DNA from: a virus
Virus record (IMG/VR): IMGVR_UViG_3300042922_000295
Coordinates: 1 to 64,000 of that record
Reading direction: 5' to 3' (one strand)
Length of the DNA stretch: 64,000 nt
The translations under genes and the position numbers were made by a program. The stretch's first letter is position 1. Every line of letters begins with the position of its first letter. A model generated the notes under the pieces. That model was not told the DNA's origin. It saw only the letters and a list, made by a program, of their open reading frames with translations, and searched no databases. Shown here piece after piece: positions 1 through 28,663 of this stretch.

Positions 1-1
1 G

Positions 2-1498
2 TACAAGAACGACGCCACCTTCCACAAGCTGCGCGAGCAGATGGCGAAGGACTTCGGCTTCACCATCCAGAAGATGCCGGGTGGTGTGACTCACGTCATC
101 GCCCCCGAGCCGGAGCCGGAGGAGGAACCGACGACGACAGCCCCCGGGCCTGTCGTCGTCGGTTCGGAGCCTACGGTTCCCGAATTGGCGCCCGTCATCG
201 AGATGAACGACGACGGGGACCTGCCGCAGTATGTGTTCCCCGCTCTCGACTGGCGCTCCATCGTCCCCGAGAACAGCTTCATCCGCATGTACATGCGGCA
301 GTGCTGCATCGACGATGTCGCCGAAGAGTACCACTTCTGGAACGCAATGGTGGCAGTCGGATTCGCCCTCGGCCGCGAGGCCAGGCTGTTCGACTCTAGG
401 CCGGTGTACGGGAACCTGTTCGTCTGCACGCTCGGCACGTCCGGGTCCGGCAAGTCTAAGGCAGCGGGTTACCTTAACGACTGCGTCGACCAGGCCCTGC
501 CTCACGACTGGACCGACCCCTCGTCTCGGGGCGTTCGCCGCATCGCCACTCCCGGCTCGGCCGAGGTTCTGATCCACAGCTTCATGAAGCCGATCGCGAA
601 CACCTCAAACCCCAAGGTCATCGACTACTACGCACCAGTCAAGGGCCTGATCGACTTCAACGAGTTCTCGCAGCTCATGTCGCGTGCACAGCGCCAGGGG
701 AACGCACTCAAGCCCACCCTGATGCAGTTCTACGACATGGACCGTCTGATCACGTCAAACTCGATCACGACCGGCTCCAAGGAAGCTCACGACCCCTTCG
801 CATCCATCATCACGACGACTCAGCCCGCCGCATTCCGCAATCTCGTCGGAAAGGGTGACGACGATTCGGGATTCTTGAACCGGTGGCTATTCGTTGCCGG
901 GCCGGACAAAAAGAAGATCGCGGTCGGCGGTCAGCGCATCGACGTCTCGCCGTCGGCTCCGTACCTCAAGGCGATTTTCGCCTGGGCTGGACAGTTCCGC
1001 GATAACGAGTTCGTAGAGTGGGGTCCGGAGGCACTGGAGCTGTTCGAGAAGTTCTTCCACGAGACCCTGTATCCGCGCAAGGTGCAGGGAACCTCGGCAC
1101 TGTTCAACCGCATCGACCTTCTCATGAAGAAGGTCATTCTGCTGCTCGCGGGGAACAAGATGGAGCGCGTGGTGTCCGGCAAGACGGTCGAGGATGCCAT
1201 CAGCATCTACGACTACATCATCAAGTGCTACGAGATGCCGCAGGCCGAGCTCGGCAAGACGCTGAACTCCGAAGTCCAGGAAGCTGTGCTGTACCAGTGC
1301 CGCAAGCAGTTCGAGAAGAACCCCCAGGCTGGTGTGACGGTGTCCATCATCGCTCGCAACCTCGCCAGGAGGAACTATCCGAGGGAGATGATCGTGAAGA
1401 CGCTTGACACCCTTGTCAAGCTGGACCTTATCGAACCCGTGGTGTCCGAACCGGGCAAGCGCGGCCGACCGACAACGAGGTACCGCTATGTCGGCTGA
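2..1498 (+). CDS. Primase/helicase C-terminal part, DUF3987/YfjI-like P-loop NTPase with C-terminal winged helix (5'-truncated by window)
   Basis: Frame open from base 2; Walker A GTSGSGKS, DSGFLNRWLF motif, C-terminal GKRGRPTTRY wing. Confidence 0.75.
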   Translation, partial: YKNDATFHKLREQMAKDFGFTIQKMPGGVTHVIAPEPEPEEEPTTTAPGPVVVGSEPTVPELAPVIEMNDDGDLPQYVFPALDWRSIVPENSFIRMYMRQCCIDDVAEEYHFWNAMVAVGFALGREARLFDSRPVYGNLFVCTLGTSGSGKSKAAGYLNDCVDQALPHDWTDPSSRGVRRIATPGSAEVLIHSFMKPIANTSNPKVIDYYAPVKGLIDFNEFSQLMSRAQRQGNALKPTLMQFYDMDRLITSNSITTGSKEAHDPFASIITTTQPAAFRNLVGKGDDDSGFLNRWLFVAGPDKKKIAVGGQRIDVSPSAPYLKAIFAWAGQFRDNEFVEWGPEALELFEKFFHETLYPRKVQGTSALFNRIDLLMKKVILLLAGNKMERVVSGKTVEDAISIYDYIIKCYEMPQAELGKTLNSEVQEAVLYQCRKQFEKNPQAGVTVSIIARNLARRNYPREMIVKTLDTLVKLDLIEPVVSEPGKRGRPTTRYRYVG

Positions 1499-1856
1499 CC
1501 ACGACGTGAACCTTCTCCGGAACGCCTCGATCGAGTGGGTCGAGAACGGCCGTCTCGTTCTTCAGCTCTCCAATGGCGACAGGCTCATCCTCGCGCAGGA
1601 CGTTTACGACGAGCTGTGCGACGGCGAATACTCCAACCGGCAGCACTACAGCCGCGCCACCTACGCCAAGGGGTGCCGTGGCCCGATGTGCCGTCTCGCT
1701 GAGACACACCGGGGCCGCAAGCGCAACGCCGACCGCGCCCACGAGGGCGGGCGGGAGTACCGCGAGGGCTTCCGCACTAACGACAGGTCGGTCGAACTCG
1801 CGCCGATCATCACGTGGCACCTCGCGACCCGGGGCCGCAAGATACGCGAGTCCTAG
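1488..1856 (+). CDS. Hypothetical protein with H-x5-Y-x2-GCR-x3-C putative zinc-binding motif
   Basis: ATG overlaps upstream stop; HYSRATYAKGCRGPMC. Confidence 0.7.
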   Translation: MSADHDVNLLRNASIEWVENGRLVLQLSNGDRLILAQDVYDELCDGEYSNRQHYSRATYAKGCRGPMCRLAETHRGRKRNADRAHEGGREYREGFRTNDRSVELAPIITWHLATRGRKIRES

Positions 1857-1862
1857 AAGCAG

Positions 1863-1899
1863 AGAAACCCCCCGGCTGGAATCCAGCCGGGGGGTTTCT
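1863..1899. terminator. Bidirectional intrinsic terminator
   Basis: Perfect 18-bp inverted repeat AGAAACCCCCCGGCTGGA-A-TCCAGCCGGGGGGTTTCT between convergent genes. Confidence 0.9.
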
Positions 1900-1906
1900 T
1901 GTGCCC

Positions 1907-2650
1907 TTATTGCAAGGCGCCTCGTTGGATCGGCGGTAGGTCGCCGGACAGGTTTCCAGTCGCATAGTCGTACGCGACGTCAGCGATGTGCCCGATGAGC
2001 GACCCGTCGAACTCGTCGCCGCAGATACACCCGGGCTCCGTCTGCGAGATGGGGCCGTGGTGCTCCTCGACTAGCGCCACGACCTGCTCGGGAGGGCGCC
2101 GTGCCCACATGTGACCCTCGAAGATGAGGGACCCATCCTTGTCGTGGTTGAACTCCACCTCAACGCGGGGCACCTCGCCCACGGCATGCGTGAAGGTGAC
2201 GAAATGCACACCGTCGAGCGAGGTGCCGTTGACCACGACCTCTGTAGTGGAGGGCGAGATGTTCTGCACCTTCACCATGCCAGACTTCGGAATGCGGGAC
2301 TTGACGTTGGTGCGCTCGGCCTGCGTGGTGTACTTCTTGGCGCTGCACTTGGGGCAGTAGTAGCGCGTGACAACATTGCCCTCGATCTCGTCTGGAAGCC
2401 AGGCGTGTTCGCACGACCCAGAGGTGGGAGCTCCGCCCACAACCTCCAGAGGCCCGTTTCCCAGGGAGTCCTTGAAGACCTGTGGCGGCTCAGTGCCCAC
2501 CTCCCACCACAGGTCGGAGTTGCAGATGAAGCAGTTGACGAGATACCGACCTTTGGTGTGACCCAGATCAGTTCGTACGTGACCCCACTGGTGCCTGTCG
2601 TCGCGACAGCAGGCGACAGTGCGGTCGAAGTCCCAGCTCAGCTGACCCAC
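1907..2650 (-). CDS. Hypothetical protein (CxxC pairs)
   Basis: GTG start with AGGAGA upstream, overlaps upstream gene; phage-like codon usage. Confidence 0.65.
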   Translation of the reverse strand: MGQLSWDFDRTVACCRDDRHQWGHVRTDLGHTKGRYLVNCFICNSDLWWEVGTEPPQVFKDSLGNGPLEVVGGAPTSGSCEHAWLPDEIEGNVVTRYYCPKCSAKKYTTQAERTNVKSRIPKSGMVKVQNISPSTTEVVVNGTSLDGVHFVTFTHAVGEVPRVEVEFNHDKDGSLIFEGHMWARRPPEQVVALVEEHHGPISQTEPGCICGDEFDGSLIGHIADVAYDYATGNLSGDLPPIQRGALQ

Positions 2651-3330
2651 CTCCAGTTCTCCTTGCCAGCCTTGAAGCCGCCGCACACCTGGCATTGCGT
2701 GCCCGTGATGCTCCCCACCATGGCGCGTGCCGTTCGCGTGTGCGAGCAGGCGTCGACCTCTTCCTTGGTGTACTGACGCTTCTCGTTGCACCCGTGGCAG
2801 ATCTTCCAGCCGCGCCGCATGTGGTGGTGCTCCCACTCGTGCTCGTGCGGCTGCTCCTCCAACACGGCCTCAAGCAGGACTGCCGCGCCGTCGAGCCACA
2901 TGATGCGAGTGTGCCCGCCGTGCCCGTGGACCTTCAGCGCGTCGTCGGCGGATGCGTACGTGATGGTGGAGGCCGTGTCCCCACGCCAGCGGAGCGTCAC
3001 GGTGCCGTCAGTAAACTGCACCCCGTCCGCGATGACGCCGGTGCCCGAGACGCCTGTAACGTCGTGAGAGCGGATGAGGACGAACTTGCGGAACCCCTTG
3101 GTCGGCGCACCCTCGCGCTCATCGTGCGGCTCCAGGCCGGGGCCGAACACCGCGACCTCCATCTGCACGAGGGTGATCGCGTCCATGAGTGCGCAGAGCG
3201 CCGGGTGGGTCTCCTGGAGAGACTTCCCGGCGCGCTGCTTGGGGTGGACCGACTCGTTGGCTTCCTGCATGGCCTTGGTGAACGCCGCTGAGAGCTGGTT
3301 CGCAGCAGCCTGGATGACACGGAGGTCCAT
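2638..3330 (-). CDS. Hypothetical protein
   Basis: 230-aa ORF coupled to neighbours; central FVLIRSHDVTGVSGTGVIADGVQFTDG segment looks like a compact domain. Confidence 0.8.
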   Translation of the reverse strand: MDLRVIQAAANQLSAAFTKAMQEANESVHPKQRAGKSLQETHPALCALMDAITLVQMEVAVFGPGLEPHDEREGAPTKGFRKFVLIRSHDVTGVSGTGVIADGVQFTDGTVTLRWRGDTASTITYASADDALKVHGHGGHTRIMWLDGAAVLLEAVLEEQPHEHEWEHHHMRRGWKICHGCNEKRQYTKEEVDACSHTRTARAMVGSITGTQCQVCGGFKAGKENWRWVS

Positions 3331-3581
3331 CAGTCGACCTCCGGCTTGGTGGGCTCTTCGGTGGCATCGAGCAAGGCCTCGCCGACCATCCGGAGAACCT
3401 TGTTCCCCAGGTCTCGGGCGAGCACCGGGTTCTCGGCCTGTATCGACTCGGCGTAGGCGATGATCGCGTTGACGGCGTGAGGGTCGTGCTTGGGGTCCAA
3501 GACGAACACCCAGCAGTTGTCGTGCTTGCCCTCCGGGTCGTTGATCTTCTTGACCTCGTAGCGTGCTTCCAGGCCCTTCAC
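3330..3581 (-). CDS. Hypothetical protein
   Basis: Coupled 83-aa ORF; FVLDPKHDPHA motif. Confidence 0.8.
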   Translation of the reverse strand: MKGLEARYEVKKINDPEGKHDNCWVFVLDPKHDPHAVNAIIAYAESIQAENPVLARDLGNKVLRMVGEALLDATEEPTKPEVD

Positions 3582-3808
3582 GATACCTCCTTGTAGGGGA
3601 CGAGCAGTGCGGCCAGGGCGCAGATTGCGCTGGCGATGAGGGGGAGCAGGGCGACGGGGGTCAGGTTGCCGCTGATGATGACGAACCAGACGAACCCCGC
3701 CAGGGCGCCGATGCTGGCGCTGAAAAGGAGCTTCGCACCGTAGCGCATCTCGTACCGACGCGGCGGGGCGGGCTTCTTGGCGATCACTGTTGCGTGTCTA
3801 CCTTTCAT
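3578..3808 (-). CDS. Small two-TM membrane protein
   Basis: Two hydrophobic segments; 4-bp overlap. Confidence 0.7.
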   Translation of the reverse strand: MKGRHATVIAKKPAPPRRYEMRYGAKLLFSASIGALAGFVWFVIISGNLTPVALLPLIASAICALAALLVPYKEVS

Positions 3809-3810
3809 CG

Positions 3811-4005
3811 TTACTCGTCGTGGAACGTGGGCGTTGCGCGAGCAACCCGGCAGAACCAGTAGGTCTCGTATCGCTTGTACACGTCACTGTACGTGACGTG
3901 CATCCAGGAGGGTGTGCCGTCTCCGCGCTTGAGGAAGCGCAGCGCCTGGCCGCAGAGCTTGCAGGTGTCCTTCTTGACCGGGGTCTCGGGGGTCTCTTCG
4001 CTCAT
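3811..4005 (-). CDS. Small Cys-containing hypothetical protein
   Basis: MSEETPETP start overlapping upstream stop; CKLC...WMH...WFC resembles neighbour 4002-4208. Confidence 0.65.
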   Translation of the reverse strand: MSEETPETPVKKDTCKLCGQALRFLKRGDGTPSWMHVTYSDVYKRYETYWFCRVARATPTFHDE

Positions 4006-4208
4006 GGGATCGGGGTCACCTTCTTCGTCGGCATGGGCTCCGGAAGGCGCCTCTTGCGCTCGCCCGGCTCGGCTGTGGTGCGGTGGCAGAACCAGTGGTC
4101 GTTGTGAGAACCGGCGCCGGGGGTGTAGTGAACCCACTTCTCCCCGAGGGCGAAGCGCACCTTCTTGATCGCCTTACCGCAGTGCTTGCAGGACTTGGGC
4201 TGGGCCAT
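4002..4208 (-). CDS. Small Cys-containing hypothetical protein
   Basis: AGGAG RBS; CKHC...WVH...WFC. Confidence 0.7.
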   Translation of the reverse strand: MAQPKSCKHCGKAIKKVRFALGEKWVHYTPGAGSHNDHWFCHRTTAEPGERKRRLPEPMPTKKVTPIP

Positions 4209-4216
4209 GAGGTCTC

Positions 4217-4744
4217 CTAGAAGGGGAGGTCGTCGTCGGTGTCGGCCGAACGCTCGGCTGCTGTCGTGTACTGCGCGGGCTTCGAGTCGTACAGGAGCGT
4301 GGTGATGCCTGTTGCGTCCTTCGTGGCCGTTAGCGGCTGAAAGTCGACGCCGGGACCCGCGAGGTCCAGCGTGGGCGTCGCGTCAGGCGGGGGATTCTCG
4401 GGCAGACTGCCTTCGTGGAAGTATGACGTGTCGCCTAGATCTTGTGCGCCGGGCCGGATGATCCACATGCCCTGCGAAGGGTCCCACAGGTGGTAGGAGT
4501 GCTTCGGGCAGGCGGGGTTGTAGGCGAGGTAGTACTCGATCATCCCGCCCCCGTGGTCCTCCGACTCCTGCGAGCAGGCGCACTCAACCTTGTCCCGCGT
4601 GGGGAGGATCATCTGCAGAGCAGCCGCGACCAGATGATTGCGGTCCTCGGTGGCGAGGCATGTACCGTACTTGTCGAGCATGTAGCGGTCGAGTTCTTCG
4701 GCAAGGTCCTTCATCAGGACATCGTCGTACTTGATCTCACTCAT
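4217..4744 (-). CDS. Hypothetical protein ending in SSB-like acidic tail DDDLPF
   Basis: ATGA overlap, GGAGG RBS, C-terminus DTDDDLPF. Confidence 0.75.
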   Translation of the reverse strand: MSEIKYDDVLMKDLAEELDRYMLDKYGTCLATEDRNHLVAAALQMILPTRDKVECACSQESEDHGGGMIEYYLAYNPACPKHSYHLWDPSQGMWIIRPGAQDLGDTSYFHEGSLPENPPPDATPTLDLAGPGVDFQPLTATKDATGITTLLYDSKPAQYTTAAERSADTDDDLPF

Positions 4745-5148
4745 CGCAGCACGCACCTCCTGTGGGGGCTCACGTGGTGGTTGTGAGTCGGGCAGCACGC
4801 CTTGTCAGTGTGGTCGTGCCACACCACCTTCTCGGAGTCGAGCAGGGCGAGGGCCATGTCGAAGAACGTCGCGACGAACGATGTCGGGTACTTCGAGAGG
4901 TTGTGGTCGGGCTCTGCCTTGCCGTACGACTCGAGCAGCACACCCGCCATCCGCCACGCCTGCGTGCGCTCTTCGGTGGTATTCGAGAGCGTCTCGGTCT
5001 GCATGCGCTGGCCGACAATCTCTGCCTCGGTGCGCCCGTCGAACTCGATGCAGTAGCATCCGCGCTTGGTGCACGACTCGTTGAAGTGCGAGTGCTGGAA
5101 GCGCGTGTGGGTGCAGCGGCGGCACTTGACGTCCTGCTTGTGCGTCAC
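4741..5148 (-). CDS. Hypothetical Cys/His-rich protein
   Basis: Coupled ORF; terminal CCPTHNHHVSPHRRCVLR. Confidence 0.75.
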   Translation of the reverse strand: MTHKQDVKCRRCTHTRFQHSHFNESCTKRGCYCIEFDGRTEAEIVGQRMQTETLSNTTEERTQAWRMAGVLLESYGKAEPDHNLSKYPTSFVATFFDMALALLDSEKVVWHDHTDKACCPTHNHHVSPHRRCVLR

Positions 5149-5807
5149 TTGAACGAGTCCTTTTCGACCTGGTGCAGCGTCTCGTTGAACTCGGCGACGG
5201 CCTCCTCGGAGGCCGGAGCGTACACCGCCAGCACCTGGTCGGCCGTCTCGATGATGGACTCCTGCACCCGAGCAGCAAGCTCGACGTACCCGTCGTCACC
5301 CTCTGTGGCGAGGACGTCGAACGTCACCTGCTCGCCAGCAGTCATCCCCTCGACCGCGATGGTACCCGCCACCGTCGTCGCGCTCCGCTGCGCCAGCGCG
5401 GCGAACTCGGCCTGCGCAGCGGTGCGGCAGGCGCGCCGATCCGACCATCCGGCGTTGACCCAGCTCGCCATTCCGGGCGTCCAGAAGTCGCGCTCGTAAA
5501 TCTCCTGCGCCCGCTCGTTCAGAACGTCCGGGTCGATGTCCAGCTTTCCTGCCACCGTGAACTCCTCGCTATCGGATGCGACTTTCCTCTTGACACCCCA
5601 AGGCTTATCGGCGTCGAGCCGCTGCAGTAGGGCTGCCACTACATCGCCCGCCGTTACCGGCACCTTGCGGTGCGACCCTTCGACAGACGGGTCGTCGACC
5701 CAGGCGACTACTGTGGTGCACTCGCTCGCGGCGTCGTAGAGGTGCTTCATGAGCTCAGAGCCTATCACTCCGCGCCCATGGAACCTAGCCCCCGGCGCTA
5801 TCGGCAT
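5145..5807 (-). CDS. Hypothetical protein, first gene of leftward block (start uncertain)
   Basis: 220-aa ORF with 4-bp overlap to next gene. Confidence 0.65.
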   Translation of the reverse strand: MPIAPGARFHGRGVIGSELMKHLYDAASECTTVVAWVDDPSVEGSHRKVPVTAGDVVAALLQRLDADKPWGVKRKVASDSEEFTVAGKLDIDPDVLNERAQEIYERDFWTPGMASWVNAGWSDRRACRTAAQAEFAALAQRSATTVAGTIAVEGMTAGEQVTFDVLATEGDDGYVELAARVQESIIETADQVLAVYAPASEEAVAEFNETLHQVEKDSFK

Positions 5808-5835
5808 CCCTCAGGCACTCACGACAGAGGTTTAC

Positions 5836-6325
5836 TGCAACGGCCGCTGCACTAAATGCTGTGAACCCGAACAAACGTCCCTCTCCAGGTTTTCCGCAAC
5901 GGCGTTGCACATAATGAGAGTGGGCGTCTAGACCCGAATCATGTACGTAAACGGACATCGTCTACGAAGTCGTGACATCTAGGGACGACCTGTACGGGGG
6001 TTCATGTTGCAGCAACAGATAGTGCAACACCCTCTGTTGCAGATGAAAAACGGCCCCTGACCTGCGGAAACACCATTTAGTGCAACAACTGCAACGCCCC
6101 CCCCTTACAAGCCCCCCCACACCCCACATCCCCAGCGACTGACGCTACCCGGAGCGCGGCCATGGGACGACCGTTGCAAGAATTCCCTGTTGCACTAAAT
6201 CTGGGGGGTCCCCAGCCCGGGGCTCAGGACCGTGTCCCTCCTACTACTACTACTACTACTACTATATATACAGTAAATAGGTTATAGGGGTATAACCCCT
6301 AGTCAGAGGGTGTTTTTTTAGTGCA
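5836..6325. repeat. Candidate replication origin: TGCAAC/GTTGCA and TGCACTAAAT repeats plus (CTA)8-TATATA tract
   Basis: TGCACTAAA(T) at 5848, 6075(rc), 6191, 6317(rc); TGCAAC/GTTGCA at 5836, 5904, 6006, 6023, 6036, 6081, 6090, 6173, 6189; (CTA)8 at 6241-6264. Confidence 0.55.
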
Positions 6326-6524
6326 TCACTTCCTGCTACGAACGTGTAACTGTGCGACAGTCGTTTTCAACTAATATTCTCGTCCTTGGGTGCGAAAGAG
6401 AGCAATGTCAGCGGGGTTGTGCGTAAGAATCATCGTTCTTAAGGGTAATCAGAAGACTTTTCCAAAGTTTTATGCGCGTCGAACGGGGCAAGAGAGCGCC
6501 GGGCAAAGGCGGGGTCTGGATTTT

Positions 6525-7286
6525 ATTGCCGGGGGCAACAGTGTGCATTCCGTCGGGATAATTGCCGACGGCAACTATGTCGCCTTTGTTGCGCTAGGCA
6601 ATCATCAGAATGCGTTAGCGCAATGGGTCCGATAGTGCACACTATCGGCGCACCTCATTGTCATTGTTTGCATTCTCATTGTTTCGCGTGCATTAGGCGC
6701 CGACTATGGCGACGATTGCCTCACGCAACAGTCGTATCTATGCATTCATTGAACGTGCGCGTATTAGGTCCGGTAATGAGGCGAATCGAAATACGCGCAT
6801 CGATTGGCGCCTCACCCAATTCACAATGCACACCACGTATAGCACTGTTTCATCAGGCAACTACACACCCATTCCCACAGACGTTTCATCAGGCAACTAT
6901 GTACATTCACCATTCTGTTTAGGAAAGGCTAATGGTGCACACATAACAGACCATTGCCCATGACAACTGTCTATGCACTATGCACATGCACCATTCATGG
7001 TTACCCTACGCAACTACACTGTTGCATCAGGCAACTACCCTACGGGTGCATACCTATGCACACCATGCATACCTATGTGTGCCTCACGCAACAGTATGCA
7101 ACGCGTTGACTAGGCAATTCGCGTGTAACGGCCGAACAGACCTCACCCTAGGTAATGACACCCGGGACGCATGTACGGGCGCCTACGGGGCGCCTAGGCA
7201 CGTCTACGCGTGTCCTATGGGTGCGACTACGCCTAGCGCTACGCATGCATATGCATCCCACTAGATCGACTGTTGCCTAGGGCAAC
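6525..7286. repeat. Left cluster of 15-bp palindrome RTTGCC-N3-GGCAAC (11 degenerate copies)
   Basis: Copies start at 6525, 6561, 6588, 6715, 6847, 6883, 6953, 7000, 7021, 7078, 7272. Confidence 0.85.
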
Positions 7287-7342
7287 GGCTAGCGCTAGGT
7301 CACGACCGTTACCAAACCGTTATCGGAAAGAACGGTTTCGAC

Positions 7343-7371
7343 TAGACACCACCTAGCGCTAGGCGTATGGT
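7343..7371 (+). promoter_or_regulatory. SigA-type promoter for a leaderless transcript, TAGCGCTA palindrome in the spacer
   Basis: TAGACA-17 bp-TATGGT, then 6 nt to ATG 7378 with no SD. Confidence 0.7.
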
Positions 7372-7377
7372 TGGGGC

Positions 7378-7848
7378 ATGACAACGAACCGGAACACCCG
7401 CCCCGCGCCCGACGCGGCGCCCGCGCCCCGCGTGCGACTCGCTACGGTCGCGACGGGCGCGCACGTCTACTACGCCACCGACGCAATCGACCACGTCGTG
7501 ACCGGGACCGTCGGCGACTCGTTCGGCATGGCCGAATTGGGCAACCGTGGTATCCGCATCCACGGTTGCGCATGCGGGACGACTCACAACGTGACCCGCT
7601 ACGCAATGGTCGTCGTCATCGACCCGTCGCCCGCGACGGTTGTCCCGGACACCCGTACGCGACGAGTCGCCTACACCATCGCGGACGTTGTTTCGTGGAT
7701 CAACAATGACGACGCGGACAATGACTATGCGGGACCGGGCGCGGCGCCCGCACCTAGCGCTACGTGCGAACACATGACGACCGTTTGCGACTCATGCGTT
7801 GACGAATGGTGCACCGACTACGCGATCACGTACATGCCGCACGCATAG
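7378..7848 (+). CDS. Hypothetical protein with C-terminal TCEH-x4-C-x2-C module
   Basis: Promoter directly upstream; module shared with 9281-9553. Confidence 0.75.
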   Translation: MTTNRNTRPAPDAAPAPRVRLATVATGAHVYYATDAIDHVVTGTVGDSFGMAELGNRGIRIHGCACGTTHNVTRYAMVVVIDPSPATVVPDTRTRRVAYTIADVVSWINNDDADNDYAGPGAAPAPSATCEHMTTVCDSCVDEWCTDYAITYMPHA

Positions 7849-7961
7849 TTCACCCGCTAGCACCTAGCGCTAGGGTGGCACATAGGCTAGACTGGTCTAT
7901 GTACCGCCCGGGAACTAGGTCCCTAGTCACCCCACCGACCCCACATAGGGAGATGTTTCAA

Positions 7962-8624
7962 ATGGCACGCACGAACACCCGCACCGCGCCCGCTACGTCC
8001 GCCAAGTCGTCCGCCACGGTCGACCCGTGGGACGCCGCCGTGGACGCCTACCACGCCGCGTCGGGCGCCGAAAAGTCCCGCGTGCGTCGGGACGCCGACG
8101 CGTCGATGCGCGCCGCGCTCATCGCCGGTGACGCGTCGGGCGCCATGGCGTGGTTGGCCGCTACCGAAAAGATGGTGGCCAGCCGCCCGACGGCCGACGC
8201 GCCCGACTACGTCGACATCGTCGCCCGTCGCATCGTGACCCTTCGGGGCGCGGCCGAATCGATCCTCAACGGGTCGACCCGTCCGGCCGGTATCCCGGAC
8301 GACGTCGACCTGTCCGCCGTCGCGGCACGCGTCGCCACGATGTCCTACGACGACGTGTCGGCCGACGACATGTCCGCCGTCGCGTCCGCAAAGGTGGCGC
8401 GGTCGGCCGTCCGACGCGACATCGCGGACGTCGTGCGCCGTGCGTTCGACGTCACCGGAAAGAACCGGTTGACGGTCGCGGCCATCGCGCGGCACGGTGC
8501 CACCGACGACTACACGCCTTCGGGCGGTGCGGTCGCGGCGCGCATGTTCGGTGGTCGCGGTGTCGACGGATTCACCGCCCACGAGGCGACGGCCGACGCG
8601 CCCCGCACGATCACCCGCGACTAG
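7962..8624 (+). CDS. Putative DNA-binding protein (C-terminal winged-helix-like domain)
   Basis: GGGAG RBS; C-terminus aligns by eye with that of 14160-15122; followed by terminator. Confidence 0.75.
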   Translation: MARTNTRTAPATSAKSSATVDPWDAAVDAYHAASGAEKSRVRRDADASMRAALIAGDASGAMAWLAATEKMVASRPTADAPDYVDIVARRIVTLRGAAESILNGSTRPAGIPDDVDLSAVAARVATMSYDDVSADDMSAVASAKVARSAVRRDIADVVRRAFDVTGKNRLTVAAIARHGATDDYTPSGGAVAARMFGGRGVDGFTAHEATADAPRTITRD

Positions 8625-8637
8625 TCACTAGTCGCCC

Positions 8638-8675
8638 AAAAGGCGCCCGTCCCCTAATCGGGACGGGCGCCTTTT
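8638..8675. terminator. Intrinsic terminator (bidirectional)
   Basis: AAAAGGCGCCCGTCCC-loop-GGGACGGGCGCCTTTT. Confidence 0.9.
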
Positions 8676-8689
8676 CGTGTCCCTAGATA

Positions 8690-8976
8690 GTTGCCCCGGG
8701 CGACAGTCGCCTAGCGCAACTACGAGCTACGCGGACGGTTGCCAGGGGCAACTATCCCGGTTGCGTCGGGCGACTGTTGCCTAGGGCAACGAACGCGTGT
8801 GTGCCGTTCTGACGGCCGTACACGCGTCGACCCTACCCACCTACCCACCTAGCGCTACGCGCCCCGTACGCGGGCGCCTAGGCACGTCTACGGCGAGATT
8901 GTGCCTAGGCGCCCCGCGCCCGTAGCGGTCGGGCGACTATGCGCCGACTACCGGCACGACTGTTGCCTAGGTCAAC
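8690..8976. repeat. Right cluster of 15-bp palindrome GTTGCC-N3-GGCAAC (6 degenerate copies)
   Basis: Copies start at 8690, 8706, 8738, 8760, 8776, 8962. Confidence 0.85.
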
Positions 8977-9214
8977 CAACGCGTGTGCGCCCCGTAGGCG
9001 CCCGACTAGGCGCCCCGGGTCACCTAGTACCCACCTAGCGCTAGTCGCGTCCCTACGGGGCGCCTAGACACGTCTCACGCGTAGTCGCGCCCCGTGCGCT
9101 AGTCGCCCGCTAGTCGACCGCCCGCGCCCCGCCCGTAGTCACCCGCGCCCCGTGCCACGGGCGCCCCGCGCCGACGATCCTTCGGGCGCATCGGCACCCG
9201 TGCGCGTAGTCACC

Positions 9215-9262
9215 AAAAAGGGCGCCCCACACACGAAGTGACATCTCGTGTGTGGGGCGCCC
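9215..9262 (-). terminator. Intrinsic terminator for 9281-9553
   Basis: 17-bp stem GGGCGCCCCACACACGA/TCGTGTGTGGGGCGCCC with T-run on minus strand. Confidence 0.85.
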
Positions 9263-9280: not shown

Positions 9281-9553
9281 CTAGTCGCGTGCCTCGTCGT
9301 GCGCGTCGTCGGACTCGTCCACCATGTCCGCGTAGTGAGCTCGCGTCGCCGTGATCGTCACCTCGTAGTCGGCCGACCATGAGTCCACGCATTCCACGCA
9401 CACAGTCACCGTGTGCTCGCACGTCGTCGGCGCGATGAGAGTTGTGTTGAAAGGTGCGGCCGGTTCGTTCGTCCAGGTGACCCCACCATCGCGTGACACC
9501 CGGTTGTCGCGGATGATGAGTCGCACGTTGTCGCCCGTGTTGAAGGTCATCAT
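9281..9553 (-). CDS. Hypothetical protein with TCEH-x4-C-x2-C module
   Basis: MMTFNTGDNVRL start; upstream TGG-TACGAT extended -10 candidate; own terminator. Confidence 0.65.
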   Translation of the reverse strand: MMTFNTGDNVRLIIRDNRVSRDGGVTWTNEPAAPFNTTLIAPTTCEHTVTVCVECVDSWSADYEVTITATRAHYADMVDESDDAHDEARD

Positions 9554-14081: not shown

Positions 14082-14159
14082 GAGTTTCATGCCACCCAGG
14101 GACGGTCAATCCGACAACCGTTCCCCACGACCGGACCGACACACAGGGAGTTGAGCATC

Positions 14160-15122
14160 ATGGCACGACGCAAGGCAACCGAGACCCCGGAGACGACCGA
14201 GGTCCAGAGCACGGAGGAGAACACCGTGAGCACCGACACCACCACCGAGGCGCCCGTCGAGGCCGTCGCGGACGCGCCGGAGACGGACGCGCCCGAGGCG
14301 CCCGAGTACGACCTCACCGACTTCCAGGCCGCGCTGAAGCAGGCGCTGGAGGTCCGCGACGAGACGACCGGCGTCGTCCCCGAGGCGAACGTCAGCGAGG
14401 TCGTCGTCGCGTACCGCCAGATCAAGGGCGCGGCGGGCAAGCGCGCCGCCAAGGAGATCGTCGACGAGGCGATGAAGGAGGCGATGCGCGAGGCGAACCT
14501 GTCCGTCGCCCGTGCCAACCTCTCCATCAGCGAGAAGCTCGTCGCCGGTCCGTCCGGCGGCGGCTCGTCCAAGTCGTCCACGCCCCGCGAGCCGGTCGAC
14601 CCGACCGAGGCGTTCGTCGAGCTCGCGGCCGGTCTGCGGCTCGCCACGACGCTCGTCGGCAACACCGCGCCCGAGGGTGTCGCCGAGGACTGGCAGGAGA
14701 AGGCGAAGGAGAAGGTCGACGACGCCTTCGGCGACGCCGAGACGTTCCTCGCCTGGCTCCAGAGCGAGGACGAGGGCAAGGGCGACGAGCCCGAGGTCCC
14801 CGCCTTCGTGAAGGCGGCGGTCAAGCTCGCCCTCGGCAAGTCGGCCCGCGTGGGCACGGCTCGGGCGCGTGCCACGGGCGGCGGCTACTCGGGCGAGCGC
14901 CGCGACGTCGCGAAGCACATCCAGTCGGCCTTCGCCGACGTGGCCGAGGGCACGTTCCTCGCGGTCGCGGAGATCAGGAACCACAAGTCGGAGGAGTACG
15001 GCAACGACGCCCCGAGCGCCGGTGCCATCTCCGCCCGCCTGTTCCCCCGCAACGGCAAGGTCACGATCGAGGGCGTCGAGCCCGCGACGCAGAACGGCAA
15101 GAAGGGCGCCGTCAAGGCCTGA
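14160..15122 (+). CDS. Putative DNA-binding protein (acidic N-terminus, C-terminal winged-helix-like domain)
   Basis: Very strong codon bias; own promoter candidate and terminator; RRDVAKHIQSAF...PSAGAISARLF. Confidence 0.8.
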   Translation: MARRKATETPETTEVQSTEENTVSTDTTTEAPVEAVADAPETDAPEAPEYDLTDFQAALKQALEVRDETTGVVPEANVSEVVVAYRQIKGAAGKRAAKEIVDEAMKEAMREANLSVARANLSISEKLVAGPSGGGSSKSSTPREPVDPTEAFVELAAGLRLATTLVGNTAPEGVAEDWQEKAKEKVDDAFGDAETFLAWLQSEDEGKGDEPEVPAFVKAAVKLALGKSARVGTARARATGGGYSGERRDVAKHIQSAFADVAEGTFLAVAEIRNHKSEEYGNDAPSAGAISARLFPRNGKVTIEGVEPATQNGKKGAVKA

Positions 15123-25870: not shown

Positions 25871-26320
25871 ATGGCGAAGAACACGGTCGAAGCCTGCATG
25901 TTCTGCGGGTCGGTTCCGTGCGAGTGCAACAAGCCTGCACCGAAGCCGAAGGCAGCGAAGCGTGCACCGCGCACGCCGAAGCCTGTCGAGGTCGAGGCTA
26001 CGGCGACGGCGCCCGCGCCTTCGCCTGCCGAAGACATAGCGCTAGGTGAACCGTCCGGGGGCAAAAAGATCAACGTGCGAGCTGCGATGAAGGCGACGGC
26101 GAAGCCGCTACCGCCGAAGTCGGAGCCCGCACCACCGGCACCTGTCGATGACGGGAGTGTCAGTCCGGAGTTGGCGTCCGCGTTGCGGGTGCTCGACACG
26201 GTCGGCATCCTGCACCCGACGGAGCGCCGCAAGTACTCCGATGTACTCGACGCCGAGCCCGACGTCGAGGAGCGCAAGGTGACGTTCAGGAAGGCGAGGG
26301 AGTATGCCCAAGGCACGTAA
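25871..26320 (+). CDS. Hypothetical protein
   Basis: CxxC..PCxC then Pro/Ala/Lys-rich. Confidence 0.7.
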   Translation: MAKNTVEACMFCGSVPCECNKPAPKPKAAKRAPRTPKPVEVEATATAPAPSPAEDIALGEPSGGKKINVRAAMKATAKPLPPKSEPAPPAPVDDGSVSPELASALRVLDTVGILHPTERRKYSDVLDAEPDVEERKVTFRKAREYAQGT

Positions 26321-27512: not shown

Positions 27513-28113
27513 GCAGGGTAGGCCGCGCAACGCCAAGGCTGCTGAAGGTCTGATCAGCAAGCACCGTGTGGCGTGGCTGGAGACCTTCATCGGCCACGTC
27601 TACATCATGATGTATCCCGAGGGTCACGCCGACGAGACCGACGCACCCTCAGTCAAATCAGAACCCGGCCCGACACTCCGGCTGATGTTCGTCAAGAACG
27701 GGCGTCCGATCTACTGGACGCTCACGGCGCTGACATCAGATGAGCTCGACAAGCTCAAGACCCTTCTCGACATGGCCTTCGACATCGCTCGCCCGATAGT
27801 CGAGGAAAGAGACAAGGCGGCACAACATGCGTACGACACCCAGGGTGACGACTCTATCGCCCGACTCTATCGCGCAGTTTCGCGCCTCATTGTGCGCGAG
27901 GGGGCGATCACCGAAAACAGCACAAGCGTACGGCAGCGACCTGAAGACGATGCTGCTGGACCTGGAGGACCCGGAGATTCCGATGAAGGACTTCGAGTCA
28001 TCGGCCCAGAACTGGCTGACGTTCAACCGGAAGCTGGTGGGGTACAAGACGACGGGACGCAGGCTGACGAGTCTCCGGGCGTTCGCCCGGTGGGCTGGAT
28101 GGCCGACCTCTGA
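27505..28113 (+). CDS. Hypothetical protein whose 3' end overlaps the recombinase gene
   Basis: TTG start with GGAGG RBS; fills the 27.5-27.85 kb gap. Confidence 0.65.
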   Translation: MARQGRPRNAKAAEGLISKHRVAWLETFIGHVYIMMYPEGHADETDAPSVKSEPGPTLRLMFVKNGRPIYWTLTALTSDELDKLKTLLDMAFDIARPIVEERDKAAQHAYDTQGDDSIARLYRAVSRLIVREGAITENSTSVRQRPEDDAAGPGGPGDSDEGLRVIGPELADVQPEAGGVQDDGTQADESPGVRPVGWMADL

Positions 28114-28663
28114 CCTCGACGAGTACAAGGCGCCTTCTGCCCCGCCGACCCAGCCTCACCCGATCCCCGAGGGCGTGGACGGACTTCGTCGCATGGTTGC
28201 GGCGGCGCGAAAGCCGAGCCATCGTGCACTAGTGGCGTTGTGCGGTTTCATCGGCTGTCGAGTCGGCGAGGCTCTCTCTGTCCGACCTAGCGACATCGAC
28301 CTCGGGTCGATGGTCCTGAAGGTCGACGGCAAGGGCGACAAGATTCGCTTCGTCCCCATCTCCACCGAGGCGTGGGGGTACATGGCGGATGCAGTAACAG
28401 CAGCTTTCCTGAACGGTGACGAGCGAATCATCAACGTTCAGGAGCGGGTGGCACGTCAGAACATCACCACCCTCGCGAAGCGCGCCGGACTCTCCCGGCA
28501 CGTTTCCTCGCATGACCTGCGGTCGACGTTCTCGACCGCTGTGTACGACAAGACGGGCGACATCCGTCTTGTGCAGGAACTCCTCGGGCACTCGTCCGTG
28601 GAGACGACCCAGATCTACATTGGCGTCAAGCACCAGAAGATGCGCGACGCTGTGGAACTGTGA
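27845..28663 (+). CDS. Tyrosine recombinase, XerC/D-like (no arm-binding domain)
   Basis: GCRVGE, GKGDK, HDLR, LLGH, TTQIY: full catalytic set. Confidence 0.93.
   Translation: MTTLSPDSIAQFRASLCARGRSPKTAQAYGSDLKTMLLDLEDPEIPMKDFESSAQNWLTFNRKLVGYKTTGRRLTSLRAFARWAGWPTSDLDEYKAPSAPPTQPHPIPEGVDGLRRMVAAARKPSHRALVALCGFIGCRVGEALSVRPSDIDLGSMVLKVDGKGDKIRFVPISTEAWGYMADAVTAAFLNGDERIINVQERVARQNITTLAKRAGLSRHVSSHDLRSTFSTAVYDKTGDIRLVQELLGHSSVETTQIYIGVKHQKMRDAVEL

Follow-up and report, generated by a model that had tools for sequence, protein, structure and literature searches.

What would a soil phage do with a crowd of short palindromes on either side of two early genes? The question is raised by positions 6525-8976 of the window analyzed here, that is, bases 1-64,000 of an 84,497-base IMG/VR record (IMGVR_UViG_3300042922_000295; label G000) from an uncultivated soil phage which, judged by its sequence, is related to Gordonia phages. 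We conclude firmly that the palindromes form an array of sites for a dimeric protein, which is conserved in a distant relative and lies in the sub-terminal control region of this phage family. As to function, the reading that we prefer, while stopping short of calling it probable, is that of an operator or looping array that would silence the immediate-early cassette 7378-8624, the likely reader being a phage protein, with a Cys/His-rich family termed CEH (described below) as first candidate.

The assembly of the record wraps, two strain variants having been joined: its last 3,831 bases (80667-84497) are 93% identical to its first 3,831 (1-3831), with 251 mismatches. One genome unit is about 80.7 kb (80,666 bases), and IMG/VR classes the record as linear despite the wrap. 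Sites were counted with up to two mismatches to the 15-base consensus GTTGCCNNNGGCAAC, i.e., GTTGCC-N3-GGCAAC. The 64-kb window holds 3, 5, and 12 sites with 0, 1, and 2 mismatches, respectively, and one genome unit holds 3, 5, and 13 (21 in total). All eight sites with no or one mismatch and eight of the 13 genome-unit sites with two mismatches fall within 6525-8976, i.e., 16 of 21 altogether; the binomial probability of at least 16 of 21 sites within 2452 of the 80,666 bases is 9e-21, and the motif is therefore not one that merely occurs at background frequency. Its exact core, TTGCC-N3-GGCAA, is present five times in the window as compared with 0.06 expected from shuffles, none of which reached five. 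The remaining sites with up to two mismatches in the whole 84.5-kb record are five singletons at 14505, 31974, 44514, 52365, and 66772, in agreement with the initial annotation, in which no clustering of the motif elsewhere was noticed.

The left cluster (6525-7286) consists of ten sites with up to two mismatches and one three-mismatch copy (7078-7092), with starts at 6525, 6561, 6588, 6715, 6847, 6883, 6953, 7000, 7021, 7078, and 7272, while the right cluster (8690-8976) comprises six sites that start at 8690, 8706, 8738, 8760, 8776, and 8962. The approximately 17 copies (11 and 6) described initially were thus reproduced, 16 of them at our threshold and the copy at 7078 with its three mismatches. 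The near-abutting pairs noted at 8690/8706 and 8760/8776 are real, each being spaced 16 bp start to start. Every site in the two clusters is intergenic, and the clusters flank the open reading frames (ORFs) 7378-7848 and 7962-8624, the positions of which agree with those first given. Within the window the sites are irregularly spaced (16-251 bp apart); distances of 16 and 22 bp turn up repeatedly in all clustered phage arrays that we found.

Over the 16 sites, 20 half-site departures from the consensus were observed, and not one of the 20 is compensated in the partner arm, which argues for protein sites and not for selected hairpins. The flanking bases extend the dyad to about 21 bp (AC-N-GTTGCC-N3-GGCAAC-N-GT). 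As far as the sequence allows one to judge, the palindromes are almost certainly docking sites for a dimeric DNA-binding protein. They behave as protein sites, and the earlier remark that there are more of them than one promoter needs is borne out.

The array lies in a region that can be recognized in related phages. The phrog_6708 protein, the product of 14151-15122, is about 40% identical to proteins of the Gordonia phages GTE7, GMA7, and Hotorobo, the Tsukamurella phage TIN2, and the Rhodococcus phage Perlina, and 50-63% identical to those of the closest relatives. The common gene order is primase, helicase, small genes, a non-coding gap of low guanine-cytosine (GC) content, small early genes, phrog_6708, AAA ATPase, and CobT. 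In this phage, the gap corresponds to a non-coding leader of 1.6 kb (5808-7377) with about 50% GC as compared with 64% for the genome, bounded on one side by the leftward genes of 2638-5807 and on the other by the first early gene of the rightward series, which runs from 7378 to about 45 kb. The counterparts of this leader by synteny are the terminal non-coding region of Hotorobo and a 1.2-kb gap in GTE7. The virion DNA of Hotorobo ends in 192-bp direct terminal repeats (PMC4982279); these fall inside the syntenic gap, and a 19-bp tandem array is found about 660 bp inside the end. Each relative examined has a short gap repeat of its own, e.g., GACGACTAGTCGTC in eight copies, GTGGTACTAG in ten copies in GTE7, and CGTTAGAAC and CAAAACGGAC in nine copies each.

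One syntenic but distant relative, contig L030, carries the same palindrome. Its proteins are 31-58% identical to those of G000 (terminase large subunit 58%, helicase 35%, phrog_6708 31%), and that the motif has been kept despite this divergence shows it to be under selection. In L030 the palindrome occurs in three settings. An array of 11 sites with runs of 22-bp spacing immediately follows a TATATA-rich stretch; the first gene contains two copies in frame; and the divergent intergenic region next to the only leftward gene, a member of the CEH family, has a perfect pair spaced 22 bp. By megablast, the region 6300-9200 had no match among GenBank phages.

Scans of public viral contigs yielded two further lineages that bear the palindrome and have no detectable protein in common with this phage. 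In the first (G006, L040, and L051), a non-coding region of 1.1 kb just upstream of the terminase large subunit gene contains 2-3 sites with 16/22-bp spacing, which abut a conserved CTTGACC (-35-like) box; a TGACCTGCG box, like that at 6057 in the window, is nearby. In the second, G001 (62 kb; L034-L037) and G002 (L038-L039) hold 45 and 28 sites, respectively, with no more than one mismatch, spread genome-wide and mostly in codon frame 0 (Val-Ala-x-Gly-Asn), with perfect copies near two small helix-turn-helix (HTH) genes. No protein common to all three motif-bearing lineages was detected by tblastn or phmmer; DUF6011 and SNF2 helicase proteins occur in G000 and in G001/G002 but not in G006, and a tyrosine recombinase in G000 and G006 but not in G001. 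When metagenomes were scanned for paired sites, most of what came up were tandem repeats of 18-45-bp period that are unrelated; no new relative of this phage was among the results, and a single additional array, L203. This soil contig of 1,126 bases (66% GC) contains seven perfect GGTTGCC-N3-GGCAAC copies at irregular 16-49-bp spacing, without coding context.

The palindrome is also found in bacterial chromosomes, as pairs 25-29 bp apart immediately upstream of the start codons of efflux operons that encode MarR and a major facilitator superfamily (MFS) transporter. Such pairs are present in Paractinoplanes, Streptomyces, Kitasatospora, Micromonospora, Actinomadura, Cellulomonas, Nocardioides, and others; they are identical in sequence in at least nine actinobacterial genomes (L064, L081, L083, L096, L103, L107, L110, L113, and L122), and the genomes that bear them have just those two sites each. 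The motif is thus not special to one system, as it recurs in unrelated phages and upstream of these actinobacterial operons. In 151 genomes of the Mycobacteriaceae, the family which includes Gordonia, Rhodococcus, and Williamsia and the hosts of all cultured relatives, only 0-4 perfect sites per genome were counted. This tally includes one unpublished genome (G080, one site), and our conclusions are independent of it. A recurrent GTTGCCCCCGGCAAC in this family was considered as an operator and ruled out, being rpmB coding sequence. With so few perfect sites per genome and the recurrent one coding, the palindrome is not a common host signal. The possibility raised at the outset that it is a known host regulator site is touched by the paired sites upstream of MarR-MFS operons, but the palindrome is neither frequent nor global in any host genome searched. 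Tandem arrays of 36-39-bp period in gammaproteobacteria, which appeared in the genome scan, were judged unrelated.

The reading that we prefer, an operator or looping array over the immediate-early cassette, is favored over the others because the divergent promoter of L030, the -35-like box of the G006 lineage, and the MarR-MFS promoters all look operator-like; the perfect 22-bp pair beside the CEH gene of L030 holds a classical operator position. The binder, the cooperativity, the looping, and the transcriptional outcome that we infer are as follows. The sites would be bound at high affinity by a sequence-specific dimer of the HTH or winged-HTH kind, with cooperative binding at 16- and 22-bp spacings. 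In this way a nucleoprotein complex would be built by the two clusters on either side of the cassette 7378-8624, just inside the presumed genome end; coating the leader, this complex would shut off or time transcription into and out of the cassette. The DNA may also be looped from one cluster to the other, as is brought about by lambda CI between OL and OR. The reader would most probably be phage-encoded, and the lineage-specific leader repeats are what one would expect of a phage protein that co-evolves with its sites.

Among the phage proteins, the CEH family is on circumstantial grounds our first candidate for the reader, ahead of the winged-helix protein as second, both being unproven. The first early gene (7378-7848, +) encodes a protein of 156 amino acids with a C-terminal CEHxxTxCxxCVDxWxxDY motif, and the only leftward gene of the early region (9281-9553, -) encodes a 90-amino-acid paralog whose ortholog in L030 lies at 1512-1841. 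The choice of this family rests on its being both the first early gene and the sole divergent gene, which in L030 stands beside perfect sites; CEH genes flank the palindrome clusters in G000 as well as in L030. Both proteins have the motif in common with the leftward gene product of L030, and it is likewise present in GTE7 gp094 (L006:5992-6450), which is the first gene after the non-coding gap of GTE7, and in four further proteins. The invariant pattern of the family is C-x-H-x4-C-x2-C...W..D, and in this phage the family is duplicated and inverted. The invariant Cys/His motif is a probable zinc site. No Pfam or PHROG family was found for the CEH proteins, and the ESM Atlas gave no usable match.

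The second early gene (7962-8624, +) encodes a protein of 220 amino acids which combines an N-terminal helical domain with a winged helix at its C-terminus. This product is the short form, paralogous to the phrog_6708 protein of 14151-15122, and matches only the C-terminal part of that family; the paralog surmised in the initial annotation thus exists. The product had no match in Pfam, in tblastn, or in a scan of viral contigs, and a word-based protein search returned only the protein itself, whereas an exhaustive HMMER search gave about 130 cluster representatives of similar length. An AlphaFold model built with 60 aligned homologs reached a predicted local distance difference test (pLDDT) score of 92.9 and places the winged helix, as originally supposed, at residues 154-219, with the H1-S1-H2-H3-S2-S3 topology (H154-165, E169-171, H172-178, H188-197, E204-207, and E216-219). 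For residues 148-220 the best structural matches were winged helices of linker histone, MarR, PadR, ArsR, and forkhead proteins (Z 5.6-7.0). In several relatives, the short form is among the first genes after the phage's own repeat array and the long form is encoded 6-9 kb downstream. The presumed recognition helix, PS-x-GAI-x-ARLF, consists mostly of small residues. Across lineages whose repeats are unrelated, it hardly changes in the long form and varies just mildly in the short form. Since this helix stays near-constant while the repeats differ, the winged-helix protein appears doubtful as the reader of the palindrome. In addition, the family is absent from G001 and G006, two complete unrelated phages with the identical palindrome. 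Of the initial proposal that this protein perhaps loops the platform, the fold has stood up, and the reading of the motif is doubtful.

Several points weigh against the operator or looping array as we picture it. The right cluster sits between convergent terminators, where neither a promoter nor a gene is evident, a placement at least as compatible with a structural cis-element as with an operator. Moreover, 17 sites and four other repeat classes exceed the needs of known early shut-off in lytic phages, and the AT-rich element beside the array (see below) also fits an origin. The first candidate reader has weaknesses of its own: the model of the CEH protein has a pLDDT of 44 and is unusable, the family lacks a known DNA-binding fold, and both the CEH and the winged-helix families are confined to the window's own lineage, being absent from the two unrelated phage lineages that share the palindrome and the spacings.

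An alternative that we regard as unlikely is a replication origin in which the palindromes are initiator sites and an AT-rich element beside them is where the DNA unwinds; the clusters would play the parts of ori and crr of P4, and the binder would be a domain of the upstream primase or helicase or an early protein. Such an element, (CTA)7 followed by TATATATACAGTAAATAGGTTATAGGGGTATAACCCC (also written (CTA)7-TATATATACAG), lies at 6240-6300, about 250 bp before the palindrome array, and the array of L030 is preceded in identical order by a similar TATATACAG stretch. Genes for a primase and a DUF3987 helicase lie upstream of the region, the L030 sites show regular 22-bp phasing, and the right cluster is in an untranscribed gap. 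However, the sites are two-fold symmetric palindromes and not same-orientation iterons, and their spacing in the window is irregular. The sites of the G006 lineage stand beside a terminase gene and abut a -35-like box, while the genome-wide dispersal in G001/G002 would not be tolerable for an origin signal. The cumulative GC skew shows no turning point at the array region, and no candidate initiator was identified.

We consider it rather unlikely that the array is a terminus platform, at which the terminase small subunit or an end-binding protein would serve packaging recognition, end protection, or a pause in injection. The terminal repeats of Hotorobo in the syntenic region and its tandem array shortly inside the end speak for such a role (PMC4982279), as do the G006/L040 palindromes directly upstream of the terminase large subunit gene; the lineage-specific repeats would fit co-evolution with the small subunit. 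Between G000 and L030, however, the small subunit, encoded at about 77752-79284 (-) of the full record, is 39% identical as compared with 58% for the large subunit, which is no special conservation; as to binding, this comparison says little. Likewise, the assembled contigs of this phage showed no ends, the sites are dispersed genome-wide in G001/G002/G006, and two L030 sites are in an ordinary divergent promoter region.

That unrelated phages reuse one palindrome under a single spacing rule, and that it is also found in host MarR-MFS operators, could reveal either convergent use of a favored winged-helix site or a shared host factor. In one version, which seems to us quite unlikely, the palindrome, the 16/22-bp rule, and the TGACCTGCGG box make up a portable cis-element that was acquired by at least three unrelated actinophage lineages and is read by one conserved host protein. 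If this were true, phages would recruit or soak up a host protein (a MarR-like dimer or another) at genome ends and early promoters, which would amount to host-factor-dependent control or an anti-defense platform across phage families.

A simpler version, in which the array recruits or titrates a host repressor dimer of the MarR type or another, we judge to be improbable. It would account for the identical palindrome in three phage lineages without a common protein and for the paired copies upstream of MarR-MFS operons in many Actinomycetota, and the site closely resembles that of the E. coli mar operator marO, to which MarR binds. The PmarO primer in PMC10799119 contains this marO sequence, TTGCC-N2-GGCAA-CTAA. 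The host pairs are, however, 25-29 bp apart as compared with 16/22 bp in the phages, and a single locus per host genome implies a local regulator of low copy number. The scarcity of perfect sites in the 151 Mycobacteriaceae genomes, with the recurrent one in rpmB, does not favor it either; a fixed host factor leaves the different repeats of the other relatives unexplained, and a benefit to the phage is not evident. None of the motif-bearing phages encodes a MarR homolog; in G000, PF01047 and PF12802 had no match, and phmmer with two host MarR proteins found none in six-frame translations.

A centromere of the ParABS type, one of the forms in which the initial annotation had pictured its nucleoprotein platform, is unlikely: PF02195 (ParB_N) had no match at E ≤ 1 over the whole 84.5-kb record while control genomes were matched, and the cultured relatives are described as lytic or non-temperate (PMC4982279). 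The platform as such remains a fair description of this repeat-rich, low-GC, sub-terminal leader. We note that a tyrosine recombinase of 278 amino acids (27827-28663, +; Phage_integrase domain, E 2.6e-26) is encoded in the middle of the early region, which leaves a temperate or plasmid-like phase some residual chance. Finally, it is highly improbable that the palindromes act as hairpins in RNA or DNA, whether as terminators, as processing sites, or as cruciforms: a perfect copy does fold into a 7-bp stem with a 3-nt loop at -8.4 kcal/mol, but this is only weakly better than shuffles (z -2.3), U-tracts are absent, none of the 16 sites has a compensatory change, most copies lose 1-2 of the 6 pairs, and Rfam at a permissive threshold gave only chance microRNA matches and no fitting family.

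Further repeats surround the array. Upstream of it, a zone of GTTGCA/TGCAAC half-sites (5830-6200) has four copies of TTTAGTGCAAC and includes, at 6057-6074, the box TGACCTGCGGAAAC, which is common to Hotorobo, L030, and the unrelated G006 lineage. In the form TGACCTGCGG(A/T)AAC, this box is found at 6057-6074 of the window, at 397-414 and 592-609 of Hotorobo (L033), at 4101-4118 of L040, and at 2668-2687 of L051, in all cases in non-coding leaders; it may serve as a promoter element or be a second protein site that these phages share. Among the palindromes of the left cluster, nine TATGCA(C) repeats are interspersed. A promoter-like TAGACA-17-TATGGT (7343-7371, +) ends 6 nt before the ATG at 7378, a start that may, we infer, be leaderless. 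The spacer of this element is filled by a copy (7352-7363) of a second perfect palindrome, CCTAGCGCTAGG, of which eight copies lie between 7232 and 9598 (7232, 7288, 7352, 7753, 7863, 8848, 9034, and 9587) and one further copy at 26035; they are usually located shortly upstream of early gene starts. CTAG tetramers are likewise concentrated, 38 of the 88 in the genome being within 7-10 kb.

Downstream, the two-gene cassette is closed by a terminator hairpin at 8638-8675 (+; -34.8 kcal/mol, z -7.3) that is flanked by an A-run and a U-run, and the minus-strand gene by another at 9220-9262 (-) with an 18-bp stem and a minus-strand T-run. The stretch between these convergent terminators, which contains the right cluster, is without a credible ORF. 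It holds two 186-bp direct-repeat modules (8771-8895 and 8957-9081), each with a palindrome followed by CCCACCTAGCGCTA and then GGGCGCCTAGRCACGTCT. The first module also contains the hairpin GTGTGTGCCGTTCTGACGGCC (8797-8817; -22.9 kcal/mol in context). This hairpin is conserved twice in L030 (about 2147-2168 and 1966-2016), and both palindrome-bearing phages have it in the space that separates the winged-helix gene from the leftward CEH gene. Its role could be that of a small RNA or of a cis-site. A divergent promoter region precedes 9825.

On the other side of the leader, the block 2638-5807 (-) consists of seven leftward genes, one of which matches a sulfatase-modifying-factor PHROG, and separates the helicase operon from the leader. 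It is absent at the matching position in GTE7 and Hotorobo, while Perlina has small leftward genes there. In the assembled contigs of two probable source soil runs, both of DNA and with the phage covered about 60-fold and 1,600-fold, neither a strain variant over the region nor genome ends were found. The contigs of one run break exactly at the (CTA)7-TATATATA stretch (6230-6273), a break which is bridged by the other run and is probably a low-complexity effect.

How, then, does the array compare with known systems? The OL/OR regions of lambda, with six operator sites and CI-mediated looping, are similar in that palindromes of about 15-17 bp form two clusters 1.4-2.4 kb apart, which flank early or regulatory genes and lie beside divergent transcription. 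In contrast to lambda, there are 17 sites here, the relatives are of a type described as lytic, the right cluster has no recognizable promoter, and a CI/Cro-type repressor was not found in this phage. The operators of MarR, both marO and those of the actinobacterial MarR-MFS operons, share the TTGCC-N2/3-GGCAA sequence, often followed by CTA, the pairing of sites, and a dyad that suits a winged-helix dimer. Unlike them, the phage array has no MarR gene, follows another spacing, comprises far more sites, and does not lie over a single promoter. The stoperators of Cluster A phages such as mycobacteriophage L5 are asymmetric 13-mers, dispersed and oriented with transcription, to which the immunity repressor binds. 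Many copies of one short site per phage genome are a feature of both systems, and the spread in G001/G002 is comparable; here, however, the sites are symmetric and 16 of 21 are gathered within 2.45 kb, and no repressor-type HTH was found beside the palindrome clusters with Pfam or PHROG.

Another comparison is with the ori/crr of P4 and the iteron origins of plasmids, iterons being repeats in direct orientation to which the domain of a known initiator binds. The two clusters of sites separated by genes, the AT-rich stretch nearby, and the adjacent primase-helicase genes resemble this arrangement, whereas the sites of our phage are palindromes. The short-repeat arrays by the terminal repeats of T7, the p6 complexes of phi29, and pacL/pacR of SPP1 rely on repeats that are direct or degenerate, or on binding without sequence specificity. 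They share with the present locus a repeat-rich non-coding stretch just inside the end, for which multimeric protein-DNA complexes have been proposed; they differ from it in that the end of this phage is only presumed, by synteny with Hotorobo. For GTE7/Hotorobo (Cluster CS-like) actinophages, we know of no description of regulators, origin, or packaging signals. The published genome papers of the group merely note repeats without an assigned role (PMC4524720). Across the whole group, a sub-terminal low-GC leader with lineage-specific repeat arrays is followed by a conserved order of CEH and then winged-helix early genes, and concrete sites and three or four candidate proteins are now defined for binding tests.

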